Of a stretch of 64,000 nucleotides of DNA, positions 2,479-64,000 are shown piece after piece; the stretch's first letter is position 1; the number at the start of each line of letters is the position of its first letter. The notes under the pieces are model-generated. The model was not told where the DNA came from, ran no database searches, and was given only the letters and a program-made list of their open reading frames with translations. The stretch is taken from positions 30,992 to 94,991 of the forward strand of contig JAZKZO010000003.1 in assembly GCA_045612665.1 (NCBI GenBank), given 5' to 3'. The translations under genes were made by a program, and so were the position numbers. The stretch comes from Eubacteriales bacterium (GTDB lineage: Bacteria > Bacillota > Clostridia > Oscillospirales > CAG-272).

Positions 2479-2534
2479 CAAAACAAAAAGCACCCCTTTT
2501 GGAGTGCTTTTGTTTTGGTGGACCAACAGGGACT
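2479..2534. repeat. 56-bp direct repeat, copy B (true terminator plus 3' end of the intact tRNA)
   Basis: Identical to 2287-2342. It overlaps the 3' 19 nt of the tRNA gene and its hairpin AGCACTCC-AAAA-GGGGTGCT plus T-run (minus-strand sense). Confidence 0.9.
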
Positions 2535-2592
2535 CGAACCCCGGACCAACCGGTTATGAGCCGGTTGCTCTAACCAACTGAGCTATTGGTCC
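2516..2592 (-). tRNA. tRNA with CAU anticodon, encoded CCA; probably tRNA-Ile2 (lysidine) rather than elongator tRNA-Met
   Basis: The minus strand reads GGACCAATAGCTCAGTTGGTTAGAGCAACCGGCTCATAACCGGTTGGTCCGGGGTTCGAGTCCCTGTTGGTCCACCA and folds into a full cloverleaf with anticodon loop CTCATAA. The G1-C72 pair excludes an initiator. C4-G69 and C5-G68 resemble the TilS-recognised Ile2 acceptor stem. Confidence 0.9.
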
Positions 2593-4187: not shown

Positions 4188-5498
4188 TTATGAGTATTTG
4201 TAAATTCTTTTGAAAACCTCTTCCTTTGCATACGAGGTTGAGTACATATAAGTTACAAAGAATATGATAGCCCACAAAACCGTGGTAACCGAAATAGTCT
4301 CATCAGACGGTCTAAAAAAGGCATACATCACCGACCAATGTGCGCTTATTGCGGTAAAAATTACTGAAAAAACAAAGCGTTTTTTAGTTGTTTTTCTAAA
4401 TTCCTTTACATAGCCTTCCACGCTATATTCCGAGAAGAATCTTGGATTTTCATACACCTTATCTATCGCATATTTGTTTATCAGATAAAGTCCCAGGATT
4501 GCAATCCCAACAAACGAAAGAGCCTCGAAAACGGTTGCAATGATAACGGGAATATATGCGAGCTGTGCTTGTGGATTTCTAAACGCGGATTCTATATAGT
4601 GGTTTTTGTTGAAGGTCATTGTAAAAATCGTGTTAAGAACGCTCGACACAAAATGAACTCCAAGTGATGCAATAAGCCATTTTTCATGCTTTTGCACCTT
4701 AATATATCCCTTTTTCACGAGGAAAAAGAATCCTATTGCAAATAGCGGCGCAAGCAATATATCGCTCAAAAATTCTATTCCATCAATATAAAAATCAACA
4801 TTAAATAGCATAGCTATTGCCATAATGCCAATTGAGAATATAAAATCCTTTGAGAAAAATACGCTTTGTCTATCCTTCATTTCCTCGACAAAGTCGAGGC
4901 TTATCTTCTCTTTTACCGCATCTGTCAACGTGCGTTTAAAGAAGCAAATAATTCTTATAAGCCATACAAGAGCTATAATGGATGCAAAAATCGTGAAAAT
5001 GAAGAAAAATACGGTTCTAAATCTAAACATCCATTCCTTTTGAGGATTGCTCAAGAAAAGAGCGCAAAAATCAGGAACGGTTGAGCATACGACTCTTGTA
5101 AGAAAGAAGAAAATTGTAAATCTCTTTAATCTTTCGCTTGTAGCGACGTATCTATCCTCGCCACAACGCATACAAATAAACGAAATACTGTCAAAAAGCT
5201 TTTGATAAGCACCAAGACCGAACACAACCTCGATTACTGAGAATGAGAATGAGAAAACAAGTGCCATTGTAGCATCGGTAAACGGAACGATTATCATACT
5301 AATGAATTTAAAAAGTGTGATAAGTGCCATTTGTCTGAATGCTTCCTTAGTCTCCCCTGCATTATCATAAACATACGATGCCTCGGAAAAGGCGCGCATT
5401 AAAAGCAAATAGCCTATAAAATCGGGAAAAACATCAAAAACGCTTACAACAGGATTAAAAAGGAAGATAGCAGCCCATATGAAATACCGTTTTTTCAT
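4188..5498 (-). CDS. uncharacterised polytopic membrane protein (about 12 TM)
   Basis: 436-aa ORF that is almost entirely hydrophobic helices. I recognise no family motif. Its start overlaps the stop of the upstream gene in an ATGA (5495-5498). There is a possible weak internal duplication: LFNPVVSVFDVFPDFIGYLL near residue 13 and LFNVDFYIDGIEFLSDILL near residue 231. Confidence 0.6.
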   Translation of the reverse strand: MKKRYFIWAAIFLFNPVVSVFDVFPDFIGYLLLMRAFSEASYVYDNAGETKEAFRQMALITLFKFISMIIVPFTDATMALVFSFSFSVIEVVFGLGAYQKLFDSISFICMRCGEDRYVATSERLKRFTIFFFLTRVVCSTVPDFCALFLSNPQKEWMFRFRTVFFFIFTIFASIIALVWLIRIICFFKRTLTDAVKEKISLDFVEEMKDRQSVFFSKDFIFSIGIMAIAMLFNVDFYIDGIEFLSDILLAPLFAIGFFFLVKKGYIKVQKHEKWLIASLGVHFVSSVLNTIFTMTFNKNHYIESAFRNPQAQLAYIPVIIATVFEALSFVGIAILGLYLINKYAIDKVYENPRFFSEYSVEGYVKEFRKTTKKRFVFSVIFTAISAHWSVMYAFFRPSDETISVTTVLWAIIFFVTYMYSTSYAKEEVFKRIYKYS

Positions 5499-6157
5499 TG
5501 TTTTTTATCTCCTTTATCGTTTTCGTCCTTTTTTAAATCTCTTTTTTCCTTTGGAGTCATTGCATAATTAAGCTTATCGTTAAGGAAATCAAGAGGTGCG
5601 TTGCCTGTTTTCTTATCCATATCCTTATCATCCTCATAGCATATACGAATATACGAGTTGGCAACGGTAACAAGCACCATTATCGAATACAAAATTTGCG
5701 AAATAAATATGATAAGCGAAAGCCTTGACATAGCAAAATCACTATCTTTGAAAAACGCATTCAACAAAATCACGCAAATTGCATAAATTGCCATAAGAAT
5801 ATAGGTTATTACAACCTTTGCCTGTATTGAAGGAAGCTCGACCTGCTTAGCCAATAGATAAATTGACGTAAGTGCAAGAGCGCAAAATACGACGTTAGAT
5901 ATCGAAAGGAGAAGCGACATAGCACTGATAAGAGCTTGATTTGACGAAAGAACGTATATAAACATATATGTCATAGAGGCAAGAAACTCAACGACAGTTA
6001 TCACTAAAGTGATAAAAAACATTTTATTTTGCCTTATAAGCTCCTTTAGGGAGTACATAATTATAGCACTTCCTAAAACATAGGTAAAGGGGGCGAATGT
6101 TGTAAATGCTCCTAAAAGCATAAAGCAACATCCGATAAACATTATTCCAAATCCCAT
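5495..6157 (-). CDS. uncharacterised membrane protein (about 6 TM) with a Lys/Asp-rich C-terminal tail
   Basis: 220-aa ORF. Its ATG lies 2 nt after the secA stop and uses a GGAGAA RBS inside the last secA codons. I recognise no family motif. Confidence 0.6.
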   Translation of the reverse strand: MGFGIMFIGCCFMLLGAFTTFAPFTYVLGSAIIMYSLKELIRQNKMFFITLVITVVEFLASMTYMFIYVLSSNQALISAMSLLLSISNVVFCALALTSIYLLAKQVELPSIQAKVVITYILMAIYAICVILLNAFFKDSDFAMSRLSLIIFISQILYSIMVLVTVANSYIRICYEDDKDMDKKTGNAPLDFLNDKLNYAMTPKEKRDLKKDENDKGDKKQ

Positions 6158-20231: not shown

Positions 20232-20529
20232 TGTGATGTAAGGTCATACTAGCTGGGGCGGTAGCGGTGCCCTGAACCTGAAATCCGCTATATGCAGGGG
20301 TGAACGCTAATCTGAGGACTGTTTTTGTGTGGTCTAGCGCCTTAAAGGGGTGTGTTGACGGATGAGTCTTGCGCAATTTTCGGCTGTGAACCGTGTCAGG
20401 TGGGGGACCAAGCAGCACTAAGCAGTTTTGAAAATGTGCCGTGAGGGCGCTTGTTCTGAGCATCCGTTTCTGGTTTGCGCATGTAAAGGCATTTCGAATT
20501 TTGGATGTATGATCTTACATGACAGCTTG
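20232..20529 (+). ncRNA. ffs: signal recognition particle RNA, long Bacillus/Clostridium type with Alu-like domain
   Basis: Domain IV core GTGTCAGGTGG-GGGA-CCAAGCAGC has a GNRA loop and a compensatory stem swap relative to CAGGUCC-GGAA-GGAAGCAGC. The 5' end TGTGATGTAAGGTCATAC pairs with the 3' end GTATGATCTTACATGACA. It sits directly upstream of dnaX, as in Bacillus. The ends are approximate to within 10 nt. Confidence 0.85.
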
Positions 20530-57382: not shown

Positions 57383-58177
57383 CTATTGCTTATTCTTTGA
57401 ATATTCCTGATATTTGTCGCAAATTTCCTTTGAATCGCCAAATTCAACGATTCTACCGTTTTCAATCCAAACGGCACGCTGACACAGCTTCTTAACCTGC
57501 GACATATTATGTGAAACTATAATAAAGGTTACTCCGTGCTTTTGAAGCTCCTCTATTTTTTGTGAGCATTTTTGTCTGAAATTTTCATCACCAACGGACA
57601 AAATCTCATCAACAAGCAATATATCCGGTTCAACGTCTATTGCGATTGCAAAGCCCAAGCGAGCTACCATTCCCGATGAAAAGTTTTTAAGGGGAACGTC
57701 AACATAATTTTCAAGCTCGGCAAATTCAACGATGCTTGAAAACTTGTTTTTTATCTCCTTTGGTGTATAGCCTATGATTGCGCCGTTAAGAAAGATATTT
57801 TCTCTTGCCGTTGCCTCATAGTCAAAGCCTGCACCAAGGTTCAAAAGCGGAGCAACGCTACCGTGCACCTTAACGCTACCTGTCGTCGGCTTTATAATGC
57901 CTGTTATTATTTTAAGTATTGTACTCTTACCTGCGCCGTTATGACCGATAATTCCAACGCTTTCGCCCTTGTTTACGGAAAAGGTGATCTCCTCAAGAAT
58001 TCTTTTTTTGGTTTTCTTGATTTTTCCCTTTACAAGTCGAATAAAGAACTCCTTCATATTATCGACCTTTTCGGTTTGCATATAGTATTCCATAGCAACC
58101 TTATCAAGCTCGATAATCGGCTCTTGCTTCGGTGTATTATCCTCAATTGGCAAGGAAGCCTCTTTTATTTCTTCCAT
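57383..58177 (-). CDS. polysaccharide/teichoic-acid export ABC transporter ATP-binding protein (Wzt/TagH type, no C-terminal carbohydrate-binding domain)
   Basis: Walker A GHNGAGKST, signature FSSGMVARLGFA and Walker B ILLVDE. Confidence 0.85.
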   Translation of the reverse strand: MEEIKEASLPIEDNTPKQEPIIELDKVAMEYYMQTEKVDNMKEFFIRLVKGKIKKTKKRILEEITFSVNKGESVGIIGHNGAGKSTILKIITGIIKPTTGSVKVHGSVAPLLNLGAGFDYEATARENIFLNGAIIGYTPKEIKNKFSSIVEFAELENYVDVPLKNFSSGMVARLGFAIAIDVEPDILLVDEILSVGDENFRQKCSQKIEELQKHGVTFIIVSHNMSQVKKLCQRAVWIENGRIVEFGDSKEICDKYQEYSKNKQ

Positions 58178-58187
58178 AATTCCTCTT

Positions 58188-59066
58188 TTAGATGCTAAAT
58201 ATGAAATTTTTCTTTGTCAAATAGAACAAAATCGAACCGGCAACCGCAAATGCGATTCCCCAAAGATAAAGCGTTCCAAGACCGCTGTAAACCGATGCTT
58301 CAGTTATAGTGCCGAGCTTCATACGGTAAACTATATCTCTAAAATACTCTACGAAATGCGCCATTGGATTTAGCTTCATAACTACTCTAATCACAAGAAC
58401 CTTCCAGCTCTCGCCAAGATTTTGAAGCTTATAGAAAATAGGCGTTAGATACATCCAAAGAGTCAGGAACACGTTGTAAAAATGCATTACGTCTCTAAAG
58501 AACACATAAAGTGCCGACAATATAAGGGACATACCGTAGTTGAACAAGAACAATGCGGGAAGCATTAGTATTGTCAAGAAAATTGTTGGACTGAACACCG
58601 GTGTCTTAATGCTTACGAAAAGCATAACGGCAAGAAGCGCGATAAACGAAAACAGGAAGTTTACTATTGCGCTAACGTTACATGACAGCGGAAAAACGTT
58701 GTACGATATTTTATTTTTCGTAAGTAGTCCACGATTATAAACAAGTATCGGAAGCGACTGTGTTGTTGCGGCACGCATTGTGTTGAAAATAATATTACCG
58801 CACAAAAGGTACAAAAGATACGTGCTGTCATCGTTGTATTTGAATATCGTACCGAAAACAAGGTACATTACGAACATATTCAAAAGTGGATTAAGAATAG
58901 TCCACAAAACTCCGATTGCGGAGTTACGGTACTGTAGCTTAATACCACGCTTTACAAGCTGAACTACAATGTTTTTATTTTTTATCAATTCTCTTTTTTG
59001 CTTTACGTAGACCTCTTTTGCCTTGGTCTTAAAAGCAGAAAATTTTGGTGATTTAAATATATTCAT
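58188..59066 (-). CDS. ABC-2 type polysaccharide export permease (Wzm/TagG type)
   Basis: 292 aa, 6 TM, with a typical N-terminal amphipathic region (LVKRGIKLQYRNSAIGVLWTILNPLL). Confidence 0.8.
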   Translation of the reverse strand: MNIFKSPKFSAFKTKAKEVYVKQKRELIKNKNIVVQLVKRGIKLQYRNSAIGVLWTILNPLLNMFVMYLVFGTIFKYNDDSTYLLYLLCGNIIFNTMRAATTQSLPILVYNRGLLTKNKISYNVFPLSCNVSAIVNFLFSFIALLAVMLFVSIKTPVFSPTIFLTILMLPALFLFNYGMSLILSALYVFFRDVMHFYNVFLTLWMYLTPIFYKLQNLGESWKVLVIRVVMKLNPMAHFVEYFRDIVYRMKLGTITEASVYSGLGTLYLWGIAFAVAGSILFYLTKKNFIFSI

Positions 59067-59134: not shown

Positions 59135-60988
59135 TTATTTGTCAAGAGTTGATAAGCCATCAATTCTATCAAGGCACTCACAAATCTCGGAATACATATA
59201 AAGTGAGCCGACACAAAGCAGTGCTTTTCCTTGCTTTTCGGATGCTTTGACTGCTCTTTCAAGCGCATCGAAAACGGACGCACACGGATATGCGACAACT
59301 CCGTTTTCCTTGTAAATTTGAGAATATTCGGTTGCATCTAGCGCCCTTGGATTATCAGGCCTTATGCAATAAACCTCGTTTGCAATAGAGCCTATTTGCT
59401 CGGCAATATAGCGATAATCCTTATCCGCCATAACTCCGCTTATAACGTTGATTTTTTCGTCCTTAAAATAGCCCTTTACGCTATCAACTGCGCTTTTAAC
59501 TCCCTGCGGATTGTGTCCGCCATCGGCTATAATCAACGGATTTTTTGAAAGAATTTCAAATCTTGCGTGCCACTTAACAAATGCAAGTCCACCGTAAATA
59601 GCCTCGCTTGGAATTGAGATGTCAAGTGAGCGAAGAATGTCAATCGCCGTCAAGACGTTTGAGGCATTAAACGGCTGATACTCGCCAAGGAGTGGAATGT
59701 ATATGTTTTTGTATTCCCCAAAATCAAACACCGTACCGTCCAAGGTAAACGAACTTATTTGAGTTTTCGAGTGGTCAACGACGAAAAGCTCCGAGCCAAG
59801 CTCTATAGCGCGCGCTCTTATCACTCCTTCGGCTAGCTCGTTTTCGCCACACCAAAGGCAAGGCACGCCTGGTTTTATAATTCCCGCCTTTTCAAACGCA
59901 ATCTTCTCTATTGTGTCTCCCAAAATTGAAACGTGGTCAAAGTCTATTCCCGTTATGACGGTTAGGACAGGTGTATCAATTATATTAGTGGAGTCAAGAC
60001 GGCCACCAAGTCCACACTCCAAAACAACGTAATCACAACCGTTTTGAGCGAAATATTCGAATGCGAGGGCTGTTATAAGCTCAAATTCGGTAGGCTTTTC
60101 CGCCATTTTATCGGCAATCGGCTTTATTTTTTCGACAAGAGCAACGAGCTCGTCATTCGAAATCATTTCTCCGTTTATCGCCATTCTCTCGTTGAATTCC
60201 TTAACGTAAGGAGAGGTAAACGTGCCAACCTTATAGCCCGACTTTTTAAGGACCTCGGAAAGCATTGCGCAAAACGAGCCCTTACCGTTTGTTCCAGCAA
60301 CGTGAATGAATTTAAGGGAATTTTGAGGGTTTCCAAGAGCCTCGCAAAGCTCATTTATTCTTTCAAGCCCGGGATTACAAAAGGTCCAATTGATTTTATG
60401 AATGTAATCTAGTGCGTCATTATATGTCATTTTAGTTGCTTTGGGCTTGTTAACATATCCCACAACACCTGCGAAGCTTTTTCTTTTAAGCAAGGTGCAA
60501 AGAAGCAAAATTTCAACAGGTGCGATGAGCATATAAAGCGGAATTCGCAAAAGCACAAGTGCACCGTAAAACTGATAGAGTCCTATCGGCTTTACAATCA
60601 TTGAGCCGACAATGTGAGCAAGTGCACCACTTACTACAATTTGAAGTGTTCCATTTTTGCGAACTATGAGCTTTGATGAAATTCCCGACATAACACCAAC
60701 AAGCGTTGCACCGAGTGTAACTATCAAGTTTGGTGGATATACCTGACTTGAAAGCAAATAGCTTACAAGATCGGAGCAAGCGCCCACCACTCCACCGACA
60801 ATAGGTCCGTATAAAATGCCTGAAAGAATTATCGGCAGATTTTCAAAGGTAACTCTAAAAAGTCCACCGTCAAAATTCAAGGCAGTTTTACAAAAGATGC
60901 CGATTACTACGCTTATAGCCGTAAGCATTGCCGAAACGGTCAATGCACGAATGCTTCCAAAAAGCGCAACTTTTTTAGAATTTTGCAT
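59135..60988 (-). CDS. folC: fusion protein: folate ECF-transporter S component (FolT) N-terminal domain plus folylpolyglutamate synthase/dihydrofolate synthase (FolC)
   Basis: One continuous ORF. Residues 1 to about 180 from the ATG 60988 form a 6-TM FolT-like domain (FRVTFENLPIILSGILYGP). The rest is Mur-ligase-type FolC (HVAGTNGKGS P-loop, VLECGLGGRLDSTN). The start is set by a GAGGGGG RBS downstream of the riboswitch. Confidence 0.8.
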   Translation of the reverse strand: MQNSKKVALFGSIRALTVSAMLTAISVVIGIFCKTALNFDGGLFRVTFENLPIILSGILYGPIVGGVVGACSDLVSYLLSSQVYPPNLIVTLGATLVGVMSGISSKLIVRKNGTLQIVVSGALAHIVGSMIVKPIGLYQFYGALVLLRIPLYMLIAPVEILLLCTLLKRKSFAGVVGYVNKPKATKMTYNDALDYIHKINWTFCNPGLERINELCEALGNPQNSLKFIHVAGTNGKGSFCAMLSEVLKKSGYKVGTFTSPYVKEFNERMAINGEMISNDELVALVEKIKPIADKMAEKPTEFELITALAFEYFAQNGCDYVVLECGLGGRLDSTNIIDTPVLTVITGIDFDHVSILGDTIEKIAFEKAGIIKPGVPCLWCGENELAEGVIRARAIELGSELFVVDHSKTQISSFTLDGTVFDFGEYKNIYIPLLGEYQPFNASNVLTAIDILRSLDISIPSEAIYGGLAFVKWHARFEILSKNPLIIADGGHNPQGVKSAVDSVKGYFKDEKINVISGVMADKDYRYIAEQIGSIANEVYCIRPDNPRALDATEYSQIYKENGVVAYPCASVFDALERAVKASEKQGKALLCVGSLYMYSEICECLDRIDGLSTLDK

Positions 60989-61043
60989 AAAAAAATACCC
61001 CCTCGATGAATACAGATTTTCAGCAACCATCTTGGAGATAAGT

Positions 61044-61138
61044 CCAGCGGGATGCAACGAATGCACCGCAACCTAAGTTTTCGTTCGAAAGACAACTCCC
61101 CGTTCAATCGACACTTGACGCGCACTCATTTACTCTGT
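61044..61138 (-). promoter_or_regulatory. THF (tetrahydrofolate) riboswitch
   Basis: The minus strand reads ACAGAGTAAATGAGTGCGCGTCAAGTGTCGATTGAACGGGGAGTTGTCTTTCGAACGAAAACTTAGGTTGCGGTGCATTCGTTGCATCCCGCTGG. This carries the conserved THF-riboswitch blocks AGAGUA, CGCGU.AAGUG, GGGA.G, ACGAA, GCGGUG and GCAUCC.GCU, and sits upstream of a folT-type gene. Confidence 0.85.
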
Positions 61139-61159
61139 AAAATCTTAAATTATGCCTAT

Positions 61160-61227: not shown

Positions 61228-61256
61228 TTGACATTGTTGGCGGTCGGGTGTATAAT
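61228..61256 (+). promoter_or_regulatory. consensus sigma-A promoter of the metal-transporter operon
   Basis: TTGACA (61228-61233), a 17-nt spacer and TATAAT (61251-61256). Confidence 0.75.
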
Positions 61257-61268
61257 TTAGTTGTAATT

Positions 61269-61283
61269 TGATAATTATTCTCA
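61269..61283. promoter_or_regulatory. Fur-family repressor box (7-1-7)
   Basis: TGATAATTATTCTCA matches the Bacillus Fur consensus TGATAATNATTATCA at 14 of 15 positions. It lies 12 nt downstream of the -10 element, over the expected transcription start region. Confidence 0.65.
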
Positions 61284-61287
61284 AATT

Positions 61288-61306
61288 GATAATGAAATTG
61301 AAAATC
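61288..61306. promoter_or_regulatory. second, weaker Fur-like box
   Basis: GATAATGAAATTGAAAATC matches the classical 19-bp box GATAATGATAATCATTATC at 14 of 19 positions. Confidence 0.35.
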
Positions 61307-61332
61307 ACTTGCATTTTAGAAACGAGGCTTAA

Positions 61333-62184
61333 ATGACATTTTCGGAAGCTTTGCACGTTCTCCTTCATGCGCTTTTGGAGACTGCTAAGAGTATTCCCTT
61401 TCTCTTTATTGCTTATTTGCTTATGGAATTTCTTGAGCATAAGGCGTCGGAGAAAATGGAAGGCTCGCTAAAAAAATTGAATAAGGCAGGACCTGCAATC
61501 GGCACGGCGCTCGGCTGTGTTCCACAGTGTGGATTTTCCGCATCTGCGTCTAACCTTTATACAACAGGACTCATCACCGAGGGCACGCTTATTGCGGTTT
61601 TTCTTGCAACGTCGGACGAGGCCATTCCACTTTTGATTAGCAATCCTAACTCCCACGGAGCGATTTGGAAGTTAATTCTTTGCAAGCTTGCTATCGGTGT
61701 TGTTGCAGGCTTCACAATAGACGGAATTTATAAGCTTTTGAAGATAAAAAAAGCTCCTGTTGACCTTTGTGAGGACTGTGGCTGTGATGAGGAAAAGAAT
61801 ATATGGATTCCTACTATCAAGCACACGGTAAAAATAGTTATTTTTATTTTGATCGTTAATATCGCCCTTGGCTTTGCAATGGAGCTTTTGGGACACGATA
61901 GATTAAACGCAATTTTATTGAGTGGAAGCCTAGCTCAGCCTTTTGTAACCGCGCTTATAGGTCTTATTCCCAACTGTGCGGTATCGGTTGCGCTAACTGA
62001 GCTTTACGTTGGTGGCTCGCTCTCATTTGGCTCTGCGGTTGCGGGACTTTGCTCCGGTGCAGGGCTCGGTCTTACCGTACTATTTAAAGCCAACAAAAAT
62101 TGGAAAGAAAATTTACGCGTGGTAGGCATACTTTATCTTATATCAGCGATATTTGGATTTGTGCTTATGCTATGCGGAATGTGA
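61333..62184 (+). CDS. ArsP_2-like putative heavy-metal/manganese transporter (10-TM family)
   Basis: 283 aa. The N-terminal pattern LLHALLETAKSIPFLFIAYLLMEFLEHK...GCVPQCGFSASASNLY...FLATSDEAIPLLI matches my recollection of the 'putative manganese transporter' family. A Cys-rich loop CEDCGCDE is present. Confidence 0.55.
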   Translation: MTFSEALHVLLHALLETAKSIPFLFIAYLLMEFLEHKASEKMEGSLKKLNKAGPAIGTALGCVPQCGFSASASNLYTTGLITEGTLIAVFLATSDEAIPLLISNPNSHGAIWKLILCKLAIGVVAGFTIDGIYKLLKIKKAPVDLCEDCGCDEEKNIWIPTIKHTVKIVIFILIVNIALGFAMELLGHDRLNAILLSGSLAQPFVTALIGLIPNCAVSVALTELYVGGSLSFGSAVAGLCSGAGLGLTVLFKANKNWKENLRVVGILYLISAIFGFVLMLCGM

Positions 62185-62193
62185 GGTGTTTTT

Positions 62194-62835
62194 ATGATAA
62201 GTGTTAAAAAAGTATCAAAGCATTTTAGAAATGAAACCGCCATTGACTACAAGGATATTATTTTTGAGGACGGCAAATCCTATATGCTTCTCGGCGCTTC
62301 GGGCTGTGGAAAATCTACGCTTCTCAATATGATAGCAGGTATTCTCTCCCCTGAAAGTGGCGAAATTGAGATTGACGGTGATATAATGTCATCTAAATCT
62401 CAAAAGGAAAAGGACAAGTTCAGAATCGAGAAAATCGGATATATTTTCCAAGATTTCAAGCTTATTCCCGAGATGACCGTCATAGACAATATAAACATTT
62501 TAAGGCTTGAGGGCGTTGACACCTCTGGTGCGGACGAATTCCTTGAAAAGCTCGAAATTCTCGACAAAAAGAACAAAAAGGTTAAAAACCTTTCAGGTGG
62601 AGAAAGACAACGAGTTGCAATTGTCCGTGCTATTGTTAAAAAGCCTGACATCATCTTGGCAGATGAGCCAACAGGCAACCTCAACTTTGCCATCGGTGAG
62701 CAGGTTATAAAGGAGCTTGTTGAAATTTCAAAGGGCAAAACTCTTATTGCCGTTACTCACGACGAGCGTCTTGCAAAGTATTTCGACTGTGTAATTGATA
62801 TGAATGAAATGACAGGGGGACGACGCGATGTTTAA
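62194..62835 (+). CDS. ABC transporter ATP-binding protein (MacB/LolD-like)
   Basis: Walker A GASGCGKST, signature LSGGERQRV and Walker B IILADEPT. Confidence 0.9.
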   Translation: MISVKKVSKHFRNETAIDYKDIIFEDGKSYMLLGASGCGKSTLLNMIAGILSPESGEIEIDGDIMSSKSQKEKDKFRIEKIGYIFQDFKLIPEMTVIDNINILRLEGVDTSGADEFLEKLEILDKKNKKVKNLSGGERQRVAIVRAIVKKPDIILADEPTGNLNFAIGEQVIKELVEISKGKTLIAVTHDERLAKYFDCVIDMNEMTGGRRDV

Positions 62836-64000
62836 ATTTGCCCTTAAAAATATGGCGATAAAGAAAATTCAAATTATTCTTGTCGTAATTTCAGTTGTCA
62901 TTTCCGCCGGTGTTGCTATTCTCGCTTTTAACGTTGCTTCGCAAATTGACGACGGAATTTCGGGAAATGCCGGATATTATTCACTTATTGTCGGTCCTGC
63001 CGGTTCAAATACGGACCTTGCAATGAATTCGATGTATTTTACAGGTAATCCAACCGAAACAATCCCCTATTCTTATATTGACACACTTTATAAGGACACT
63101 AACGTCAAGAGGGTTATCCCTCTCGCTATCGGTGGTGGAACTTACAAAAATCAGTATAAGGTTGTAGGTACGTCAGCCGATTTATTCGCTTCTAACAACT
63201 TTGAAGCGGGCGATGCGTTTAATGATAGCGTTGACTGTCAGGTTGTTATAGGATATACCGTTGCGCAAAGAAACAACCTAAAGGTTGGAGATAAGATAAA
63301 AATCGGGCACGGAACTGAGGACCACGGACACGACCTTGAGGTTGTAGGTATTCTCTCTCAAACATATTCTTCCTATGACAATGTAGTATTTACACAGGTT
63401 AAGACTCTTTGGCATTTGCACGAGCACGAGGGTGAGGAGCACGCTCATCACAACGTTTATTCGTTCCTTATAAATACCAAGAATTTAACCGGAGCTTCAG
63501 TGCTTGTAAACAAGCTTAATAACACGGTTATCACCGATGAGCACGGCACTGAATATCCTATTCAAGCAATTGAGCCTATGAACATTGTTCGCGGTGTGCT
63601 TGACGACCTAGGAGATACAAAATATATCACCTTTGTTCTATGCGGAATTATTCTCGCTATGAACATTTTGATAATTTCCATTATCACTCTTCTCAACATG
63701 TACAACTCCAAGAAGGAAATCGCGCTTATGCGTCTTATCGGTATAAGCATGAAGAAAATCAACCTTCTCTACATTATTCAAAACAGCATAATCGGTATCG
63801 TTTCAACAATTCTTGCCTTTGGCGCATCAAGGCTATGCCTATTGTTTATGAGCGATTACGTGCAAAGCATGGGAGTTGTACTCAATTACGGTAAAATTTA
63901 CGGTCTTGAATTTGTAATTCTCGTAGCAGTATTTGTTATAACGGTATTACCTACGGTTATTTGCACCTATTCAATGGCAAGAAAGGATAGCTTGGAGCAA
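62828..64000 (+). CDS. FtsX/MacB-type ABC transporter permease with a histidine-rich extracytoplasmic domain (3' end cut by the window)
   Basis: This ORF is not in the track because it has no stop; I translated it by hand from the ATG 62828, which overlaps the ATPase stop. It gives 391 codons in frame to position 64000. It has an N-terminal TM helix, a large loop containing GHGTEDHGHD and WHLHEHEGEEHAHHN, then FtsX-type helices (LLNMYNSKKEIALMRLIGIS). Confidence 0.75.
   Translation, partial: MFKFALKNMAIKKIQIILVVISVVISAGVAILAFNVASQIDDGISGNAGYYSLIVGPAGSNTDLAMNSMYFTGNPTETIPYSYIDTLYKDTNVKRVIPLAIGGGTYKNQYKVVGTSADLFASNNFEAGDAFNDSVDCQVVIGYTVAQRNNLKVGDKIKIGHGTEDHGHDLEVVGILSQTYSSYDNVVFTQVKTLWHLHEHEGEEHAHHNVYSFLINTKNLTGASVLVNKLNNTVITDEHGTEYPIQAIEPMNIVRGVLDDLGDTKYITFVLCGIILAMNILIISIITLLNMYNSKKEIALMRLIGISMKKINLLYIIQNSIIGIVSTILAFGASRLCLLFMSDYVQSMGVVLNYGKIYGLEFVILVAVFVITVLPTVICTYSMARKDSLEQ

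Follow-up and report, generated by a model that had tools for sequence, protein, structure and literature searches.

An uncultured gut bacterium of the Oscillospirales (Clostridia) appears to carry an operon of four membrane-transport genes of the metal-starvation type, most likely responsive to zinc; our confidence in this description as a whole is about even. The operon lies at the end of the stretch of DNA analysed here (64,000 nucleotides of contig JAZKZO010000003.1, positions 30,992 to 94,991; hereafter, the window), and its fourth gene runs beyond it. It combines a permease of the ArsP_2 family, a family annotated as arsenic efflux proteins, with an ATP-binding cassette (ABC) ATPase, a MacB-type permease with His-rich extracytoplasmic loops, and a lipoprotein with a CPxC loop, all behind a consensus promoter and two adjacent operator boxes. 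The metal-related character of the operon is well supported. As a whole, it resembles the poorly understood ZrgABCDE and PA4063–PA4066 zinc systems, of which it would be a Gram-positive relative not described before.

Operon Layout and Operator

The control elements and genes of the operon, in window coordinates, are as follows.

61228..61256 (+): sigma-70-type promoter TTGACA-17-TATAAT, 12/12 match
61265..61287 (no strand assigned): operator box 1, a 23-bp palindrome, AATTTGATAATTATTCTCAAATT, starting about at the expected transcription start
61283..61305 (no strand assigned): candidate operator box 2, AAATTGATAATGAAATTGAAAAT, in which the same half-site is repeated; overlaps box 1 by 5 nt
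61333..62184 (+): ArsP_2-family permease, candidate metal permease, 283 aa (Pfam PF11449, NCBIfam NF037962)
62194..62835 (+): ABC ATPase of the MacB/LolD/FtsE-like group, 213 aa (PF00005)
62828..64000 (+): MacB-type (type VII ABC) permease, 391 aa, complete (MacB_PCD and FtsX domains)
64000..64000 (+): first base of the fourth gene, encoding a 314-aa OB-fold (oligonucleotide/oligosaccharide-binding fold) lipoprotein; the rest lies at L001 9173-10117

The 3′ end of the ATPase gene overlaps the start of the permease gene by 8 nt, and the permease stop and the ATG of the lipoprotein gene are interlocked in the sequence ATGA. Comparison with a 391-aa database protein, which differs at 1 residue, shows that the last codon in the window is also the last sense codon of the permease, so that nothing of this protein is missing. 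The original prediction, in which the window stopped inside the permease, was therefore mistaken on this point and right in allowing for further genes: on the contigs of the same organism (L001–L004), the lipoprotein gene comes next, and beyond it lie a hairpin that looks, by eye, like a terminator, and then thrS. The upstream border of the operon is formed by a divergent tetrahydrofolate (THF) riboswitch and a folT–folC fusion, and this riboswitch was the sole nearby match when the operon leader was searched with Rfam for riboswitches and other known RNAs.

The promoter, which the original prediction had called a consensus one, scores 12/12, and its −35 and −10 hexamers are kept in the aligned orthologous leaders. 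Within box 1, the Fur-family 7-1-7 core TGATAATTATTCTCA (61269-61283) begins 12 nt after the −10 and has 1 mismatch to TGATAATNATTATCA; compared with the 7-1-7 inverted repeat TGATAATnATTATCA, the Bacillus subtilis Fur consensus, this promoter-adjacent site agrees at 13/14 positions. In the 64-kb window, 1 site with no more than one mismatch to the 7-1-7 consensus is observed, against 0.05 expected, and a position weight matrix (PWM) made from the orthologous sites finds a single match, box 1, at 34.2 bits. For the comparison of operators, 14 ArsP_2 loci were inspected and 11 non-redundant leaders aligned. In this alignment the −35, the −10, and the block TG-TAATTTGAGAATnATTCTCAAATTTGAnAATGAATTTGAnAA are conserved, whereas the spacer and the remaining leader drift. 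Box 2 is kept in the orthologous leaders as TTTGAnAATGAATTTGAnAA and is non-palindromic; because of this conservation it is considered real, as had been suspected of a second, weaker box, and it is probably bound by the regulator too. Judged from the aligned leaders, the two adjacent boxes starting at about +1 form a phylogenetic footprint, which supports the predicted Fur-family operator of metal-starvation type and extends the predicted 7-1-7 site to a 23-bp palindrome plus a second box. The half-site consensus across leaders is TGAGAAT or TGAGAAC, the TGATAAT half of the window being a variant. Given that the operator occupies about +1 to +45 behind a consensus promoter, its effect should be repression, and hence expression under metal limitation; the operon is very probably repressed by a protein of the Fur family.

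The operator has been found to follow ArsP_2 rather than the ABC genes. It also precedes stand-alone ArsP_2 genes (L205/L206 and L211), where no ABC module is present, and a PWM scan of 647 kb of related loci without ArsP_2 gave zero sites, so the operator belongs to ArsP_2. In fact, in the ArsP_2-less loci, neither the consensus nor the PWM detects Fur-like boxes upstream of the ABC gene or of the small-protein gene that usually precedes it (see below), and the ABC module there has ordinary promoters. From the sequences compared, the ABC module would come under operator control only where it has been fused into one operon with ArsP_2.

The Regulator

The operator core TTTGAGAATNWTTMTCAAA was also used to scan a metagenome collection. 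The commonest Pfam families in the open reading frames (ORFs) flanking these cores are ZnuA (7) and FUR (3), with one ZIP in addition, and the few iron-related neighbours all lie in proteobacteria-like contigs. Five Firmicutes-like contigs of gut/rumen type (L092, L094, L115, L144, and L186; GC 0.39–0.48, the window having 0.40) each carry two AATTTGAGAATnATTCTCAAATT-type boxes at the promoters of regulator and/or ZnuA-type genes; L115 and L144 are the two whose origin, a rumen assembly, was checked. In these contigs, one box lies directly against the −35, with the second either overlapping the −10 or lying downstream of it, and the genes behind the paired boxes encode a Fur-family regulator and/or an AdcA-like binding protein. 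For example, L186 has a canonical regulator–znuA–znuC–znuB operon behind the operator, and the L094 box AATTTGATAATGATTCTCAAATT differs from the window box only in its central base. The binding protein of L094 is nearest to AdcA (E 7e-35) and YcdH, ahead of Mn/Fe binding proteins; long loops of His/Asp/Glu are present in those of L094 and L144, whereas the loop in the L186 protein is acidic and free of His runs. The nearest solved relative of the linked regulator is, by a small margin, Zur of Streptomyces coelicolor (3mwm). Since an autoregulated regulator co-localized with znuABC is the standard comparative-genomics argument for a Zur box, these comparisons make it likely that the regulator is Zur and the metal zinc. 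Zur is preferred over Fur because the half-site is TGAGAAT and not TGATAAT, and because the operator is shared with regulator, AdcA, and ZnuA promoters. What had been called a Fur box thus stands as a Fur-family operator, though probably not as one of the iron type. Direct comparison with the Bacillus-type Zur box TCGTAATnATTACGA gives 9/14, and the operator, if a Zur site, would be a lineage-specific Zur motif. Regular-expression searches beside the metagenomic boxes did not find L31/S14-type ribosomal paralogues, which are hallmark targets of Zur. PerR was rejected as the regulator, the half-site not being TTATAAT.

Two of these contigs hold probable zur–(small Cys/His protein)–adcA-like loci (L094 557-2480, minus strand; L144 9218-10916, plus strand) without adjoining znuB or znuC. 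Since ruvC or fusA comes next instead, the His-rich binding protein is left without its usual partners in these loci, in contrast to L186 with its full znuACB.

The ArsP_2 Permease

The first gene matches Pfam ArsP_2 (PF11449) with 68.5 bits (cut-off 32.5) and the NCBIfam model NF037962, "arsenic efflux protein," with 267 bits (cut-off 100). Its CEDCGCDE loop (residues 146-153, nt 61768-61791) contains five residues, C146, D148, C149, G150, and C151, that are invariant in 24 orthologues (CxDCGC). Both the ArsP_2-like identity and the loop had been predicted, together with 10 transmembrane (TM) helices, a number for which the hydropathy profile suggests about 8 instead. In the same orthologues, an invariant core is also found in the motifs PQCGFS (61522-61539), TSDEA (61609-61623), and PNCA(V/I)S (61969-61986), and the paired P(Q/N)C(G/A)xS motifs fall in hydrophobic segments. 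An exact-sequence database lookup of the protein gave no match, and our search of the literature on ArsP_2/PF11449 found nothing functional.

No arsenic-resistance context (arsR, arsC, arsB, and similar genes) is present in any locus examined, where the neighbours of ArsP_2 are folT–folC, the ABC–FtsX–lipoprotein genes, and thrS. In L205/L206 and L211, ArsP_2 stands alone in the same syntenic slot, with folT/folC on one side and thrS on the other; L206 belongs to the assembly GCA_017451485.1. That it keeps the operator when alone favours the view, against the "arsenic efflux" label, that ArsP_2 suffices by itself for the uptake of an essential thiophilic metal, Zn(II) being the most likely one. 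In L211, the stand-alone ArsP_2 is followed by a convergent gene pair (4923-5828, minus strand), of which one gene is for a thioredoxin/Redoxin lipoprotein (WCPYC) and the other for a membrane protein of 139 aa with no Pfam hit; a homologue of the latter comes after the operon in L210 (7718-8137).

The ABC Module

The second gene encodes an ABC ATPase, as predicted (ABC_tran, PF00005, E 3e-36); its best NCBIfam similarities are L_ocin_972_ABC, FtsE, and LolD, all under cut-offs. The third gene product, predicted to be a MacB/FtsX-type permease, has the Pfam domains MacB_PCD and FtsX (the latter C-terminal). In its AlphaFold2 model (predicted local distance difference test, pLDDT, 77.6), a large extracytoplasmic domain is inserted between the first and the second of 4 TM helices. 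With Foldseek, this model retrieves MacB (5gko, E 3e-14) and also LolCDE, Spr0694-5, HrtBA, YtrEF, YbbAP, BceAB, and FtsEX, whereas a profile of the permease family has no meaningful match among Protein Data Bank (PDB) sequences, so that no solved chain is detectable at sequence level. The model confirms the MacB fold, and the protein is a type VII ABC permease. Two His clusters lie in its extracytoplasmic domain (residues about 48-250):

63305..63334 (+): His cluster 1, residues 160-169
63413..63451 (+): His/Glu cluster 2, residues 196-208

Both clusters had been noticed in the original prediction, which is supported by the conservation of the His and Cys motifs throughout their families. In 45 permease homologues, down to 57% identity, no substitution is seen at H161, H166, or H198, and conservation reaches at least 90% at H200 and H208; the length of the His/Glu-rich insert varies. 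In the model, the two clusters lie in lower-confidence loops between secondary-structure elements, with pLDDT <50 only at residues 201-206.

The lipoprotein (314 aa) has the lipobox LVSC and an invariant CPxC loop. The N-terminal part of its AlphaFold2 model (pLDDT 84.2) is an OB fold and the C-terminal domain is helical; the CPxC lies in the one very-low-confidence loop. A Pfam search with the protein of the window organism gave no hit, DUF3299 included, and a profile of the family had no meaningful match among PDB sequences. Foldseek, in turn, retrieves generic OB folds, among them 4hsp (PA4066/DUF3299) with an E of 3e-3, and DUF3299 is the only recurrent Pfam match among 30 distant members (6/30, best E 5e-4). 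The lipoprotein is therefore likely to be a remote relative of DUF3299. The family is small, with 328 representative clusters in 1.84 billion proteins, and the gene of a distant member (L212, GC 36%) again stands behind those of an ABC ATPase and of an FtsX permease whose loops are His-rich.

Gene Neighbourhoods

The conservation of the gene order was followed in 84 FtsX-anchored loci, namely the 4 contigs of the window organism and 80 loci from species-representative genomes, all of them metagenome-assembled genomes of uncultured gut/rumen Clostridia/Oscillospiraceae. The ABC–FtsX–lipoprotein triad is present wherever the contig reaches far enough, and the lipoprotein gene comes after the permease in 82/84 of these loci (it is absent only at a contig end) and in 5 loci collected later. 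By this comparison, the triad is a conserved Firmicutes module. ArsP_2 precedes it only in close relatives of the window and a few others (L001–L010, L070, L074, and L077), to which lookups starting from ArsP_2 added L207–L210. One of these loci, L008, belongs to SVSE01 (Oscillospiraceae SIG661). The permeases of L070, L074, and L077, the only ArsP_2 loci measured, have 58–59% identity. ArsP_2 without the module and the module without ArsP_2 thus represent separable units that have been joined in this lineage, and the predicted pairing of ArsP_2 with ABC genes, though present here, is lineage-specific.

In most loci the usual first gene encodes instead a protein of about 95 aa with two TM helices, an HxH…CxxC motif, and the conserved C-terminus (T/S)(P/L)VxLKVKLS(D/N). 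Of 25 such proteins, 2 match Pfam DUF2946 (best E 0.006, under the gathering cut-off), and the family gave no hit to DUF2607. A member of this family, ending in …KQKVKLVI, is located between the regulator and the AdcA-like gene of L094; therefore, the usual first gene of the module also occurs in a probable zur–znuA operon.

Other features of these loci involve the junction of the small gene with the ABC gene. In the ArsP_2-less L012–L084, the end of the small ORF, stop codon included (AAGCUUUCGrAUUrA), pairs with CGAAAGG, which is the Shine-Dalgarno sequence of the ABC gene, and the inner stem of the resulting long hairpin (e.g., L021 4268-4344 and L067 2280-2366) covaries. Single-sequence folds of this hairpin gave −18.7 to −21.6 kcal/mol (z −3.4 to −4.9) in 8/8 cases tested; RNAalifold returned zero pairs, since the stems, of variable length, misalign. 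The arrangement looks like obligatory translational coupling. In addition, a tandem duplication of about 160 bp (L021 3552-3899) lies upstream of the small-protein gene, with two near-identical ORF translations and no Rfam match.

Comparison with Known Systems

The Zrg and PA4063–PA4066 systems were initially taken as zinc importers. Both are Zur-regulated MacB-type ABC systems with a DUF3299 protein, found in Vibrio cholerae and Vibrio parahaemolyticus (ZrgABCDE) and in Pseudomonas aeruginosa (PA4063–PA4066), respectively (PMC9817125, PMC4542158, PMC8561739, PMC11481552). In Vibrio, ZrgA is a His-rich DUF2796 protein, ZrgD belongs to DUF2607, and ZrgE to DUF3299 (PMC9817125). The operon described here resembles them in its separate ATPase and 4-TM FtsX/MacB permease with a large extracytoplasmic domain, in the downstream OB-fold extracytoplasmic partner, which is DUF3299 there and probably a remote relative of it here, in the possession of a His-rich metal-binding element, and in the Fur-family operator in front, which is Zur in those systems and probably Zur here. 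The original prediction that no characterized system matches is thus not borne out: the remote DUF3299 likeness of the lipoprotein points to a characterized analogue, one whose direction of transport is disputed. The differences are nevertheless considerable. The present system is Gram-positive, without an outer membrane; no DUF2796 (ZrgA/PA4063) or DUF2607 (ZrgD) gene is found in the operon; and the His-rich segments are built into the extracytoplasmic domain of the permease. Moreover, the OB-fold partner is here a lipoprotein that has a helical domain and an invariant CPxC in addition and falls short of Pfam DUF3299; the first gene encodes either ArsP_2 or the small HxH/CxxC protein; and the operator is found only on the ArsP_2-linked versions. 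No Gram-positive counterpart was described in the literature found with "Zur regulon" and FtsX, DUF3299 and zinc, or ArsP_2/PF11449.

Each part of the operon can also be set against better-known families. With the ArsP/ArsP_2 permeases (TCDB 2.A.119; PF03773, PF11449; NF037962), the first gene product shares profile membership and the paired Cys motifs in hydrophobic segments; its gene, in contrast to the arsenic label, has no ars operon or ArsR, and its subfamily has the invariant CxDCGC loop. The starvation-type operator and the folT–folC/thrS setting, in the absence of an ars context, argue for uptake of an essential metal over efflux of arsenicals. With ZnuABC/AdcABC and Zur, the operon probably shares the regulator and operator, as well as His-rich acidic loops on the extracytoplasmic metal-binding part, although its transporters are built in an entirely different way, a type VII ABC system and ArsP_2 standing where classical zinc uptake has a type II importer and a binding protein of cluster A-I. 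With HrtBA, MacB, LolCDE, BceAB, YtrEF, and FtsEX, the permease shares the fold, and mechanotransmission is expected of it, but there is no sequence-level match to any solved chain. The substrates of those systems are heme, macrolides/toxins, lipoproteins, and peptide–target complexes; to our knowledge, none of the six systems just named has His-rich loops in the extracytoplasmic domain or a CPxC OB-fold lipoprotein partner.

Proposed Mechanism

From the families, folds, conserved ligands, gene linkage, and shared operators described above, we infer the identity of the regulator, zinc as its metal, the inward direction of transport, and a hand-off between the two transporters. In metal-replete conditions, a repressor of the Fur family (most likely Zur) would sit on the boxes at 61265-61305 and block the consensus sigma-A promoter; under metal limitation, all four genes would be expressed. 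ArsP_2, with its P(Q/N)C(G/A)xS pair, TSDEA, and CxDCGC motifs, may be the actual membrane pathway for the metal ion. The ATPase, the permease with the His-rich domain, and the CPxC lipoprotein would form one MacB-type (type VII) ABC machine, which would bind metal outside the membrane and, by ATP-driven movement of the extracytoplasmic domain, mobilize it towards the permease. On balance, the function of the operon seems to be metal acquisition, and the ABC module plausibly captures or mobilizes metal outside the membrane through its conserved surface His and Cys ligands. The hand-off of metal from the ABC machine to ArsP_2 is the most speculative step and a doubtful one; the module might also act alongside ArsP_2 or export something. 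Still bolder, and unlikely to hold as stated, is the idea that this type VII ABC machine is an ATP-driven extracytoplasmic loader for zinc or another thiophilic metal in the sulfide-rich gut, passing the metal caught by its His-rich domain and the CPxC lipoprotein to ArsP_2 here and, in most relatives, to the 95-aa protein. If it were so, ArsP_2 would be a new family of zinc importers, now mis-annotated as arsenic efflux, and the mechanism of the Zrg/PA4063-66 type would be settled in favour of import.

Alternative Explanations

Zinc acquisition under the control of Zur has several observations weighing against it. The operator could belong to an iron regulon, with Fur:Fe(II) as the repressor and the Cys/His-rich transporters taking up Fe(II) or other iron in the anoxic gut. 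The 13/14 agreement with the 7-1-7 consensus of B. subtilis Fur exceeds the 9/14 with that of B. subtilis Zur, the linked regulators score best on NCBIfam Fur models, the core stands beside bfd, FecR, and an iron-type binding protein in the proteobacteria-like contigs, and the Zur assignment itself depends on metagenomic contigs whose relatedness to the window organism is unproven. However, the clade consensus is TGAGAAT/TGAGAAC and not TGATAAT, and the scores on the Fur models (62–69 bits) are far under the cut-off of 220 and do not discriminate. In the Firmicutes-like contigs, the operator brackets regulator and AdcA-like/ZnuACB promoters, two of the binding proteins (L094 and L144) are His-rich, and no iron-uptake gene was seen beside the operator, and the nearest solved regulator is a Zur. 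No FeoB is present in the DNA of the collected loci and contigs, so the iron alternative is tested only indirectly; we regard it as quite improbable.

The direction of transport has also to be considered. A starvation-induced exporter is conceivable, if unlikely, in which a metallophore, a metal chelate, or a competing or mis-metallating metal would leave through the MacB-type pump and perhaps also through ArsP_2. Structurally characterized MacB-type transporters, which include the top Foldseek hits of the permease, all export substrates or extract them from the membrane or periplasm, and we know of no transmembrane substrate channel in this group. ArsP is named as an exporter family in Pfam and NCBIfam and described as such (PMC7176098), PA4064/65 has been argued to export a pyochelin–cobalt complex, and PA4066 shows no evident zinc binding (PMC11481552). 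The hydropathy topology of ArsP_2 is ambiguous and leaves the side of the CxDCGC loop undecided. On the other hand, no metallophore biosynthesis genes adjoin the operon, its neighbours being folT–folC and thrS in conserved synteny; stand-alone ArsP_2 retains a starvation-type operator; His-rich extracytoplasmic loops and a surface CPxC lipoprotein fit capture better; and the Zrg systems help Vibrio to grow when Zn is limiting (PMC9817125). Finally, the ABC module might have a non-metal role in the handling of cell envelope, peptides, or lipoproteins, and have been joined to a metal-regulated ArsP_2 by accidental insertion. In most module loci the operator is missing and the promoters are ordinary ones; metal regulation of the module is thus not universal. 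ArsP_2 and the module are each found without the other, and the best NCBIfam similarities of the ATPase are to bacteriocin export, FtsE, and LolD. This is nonetheless very unlikely, given that the extracytoplasmic His of the permease and the CxxC of the lipoprotein are kept even in distant members, that the usual first gene encodes an HxH/CxxC protein whose family is also found in a regulator–znuA operon, that the joining of ArsP_2 and module recurs in several diverged lineages (L070, L074, and L077, with the permease identities given above), and that the lipoprotein remotely resembles DUF3299, the family to which a component of the Zur-regulated Zrg systems belongs.

The choice between uptake and export matters beyond this bacterium. 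The Zur-regulated MacB-type systems Zrg and PA4063-66 are strongly induced during infection, and zinc import versus chelate export is still disputed for them; a Gram-positive version without outer membrane, with its ligands on the permease and the lipoprotein, would be a simpler and more telling system in which to address the question. In addition, a widespread "arsenic efflux protein" subfamily of gut Clostridia could be re-annotated as a probable metal-starvation uptake permease, and the putative lineage-specific Zur operator could be used for the reconstruction of regulons in uncultured gut/rumen Oscillospirales.

Flanking Features

The THF riboswitch upstream of the operon (61043-61139, minus strand; 77.9 bits) precedes a gene (59135-60988, minus strand) in which an energy-coupling factor (ECF) folate S-component, FolT-like, is fused to folylpolyglutamate synthase (FolC, Mur-ligase domains). 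The two genes are separate in L205, L207, and L211 and fused in the window, L001, L209, and L210. At 57383-59066 (minus strand), an ABC-2 type exporter pair (ABC2_membrane and ATPase) has glycosyltransferase and Bac_transf genes as neighbours. The cluster probably exports a cell-wall polysaccharide or teichoic acid, and its synteny is kept alongside the folT–folC/arsP locus. Past the end of the window, thrS has a long leader with a terminator-like hairpin (L001 10150-10450), T-box-like by eye and under the Rfam gathering score, and a lysine riboswitch (L001 15398-15565, minus strand) is located ahead of dapA–dapB–lysA. Elsewhere in the window, a large bacterial signal recognition particle RNA (20244-20512, plus strand; 152 bits) and a tRNA gene (2519-2592, minus strand) are found.

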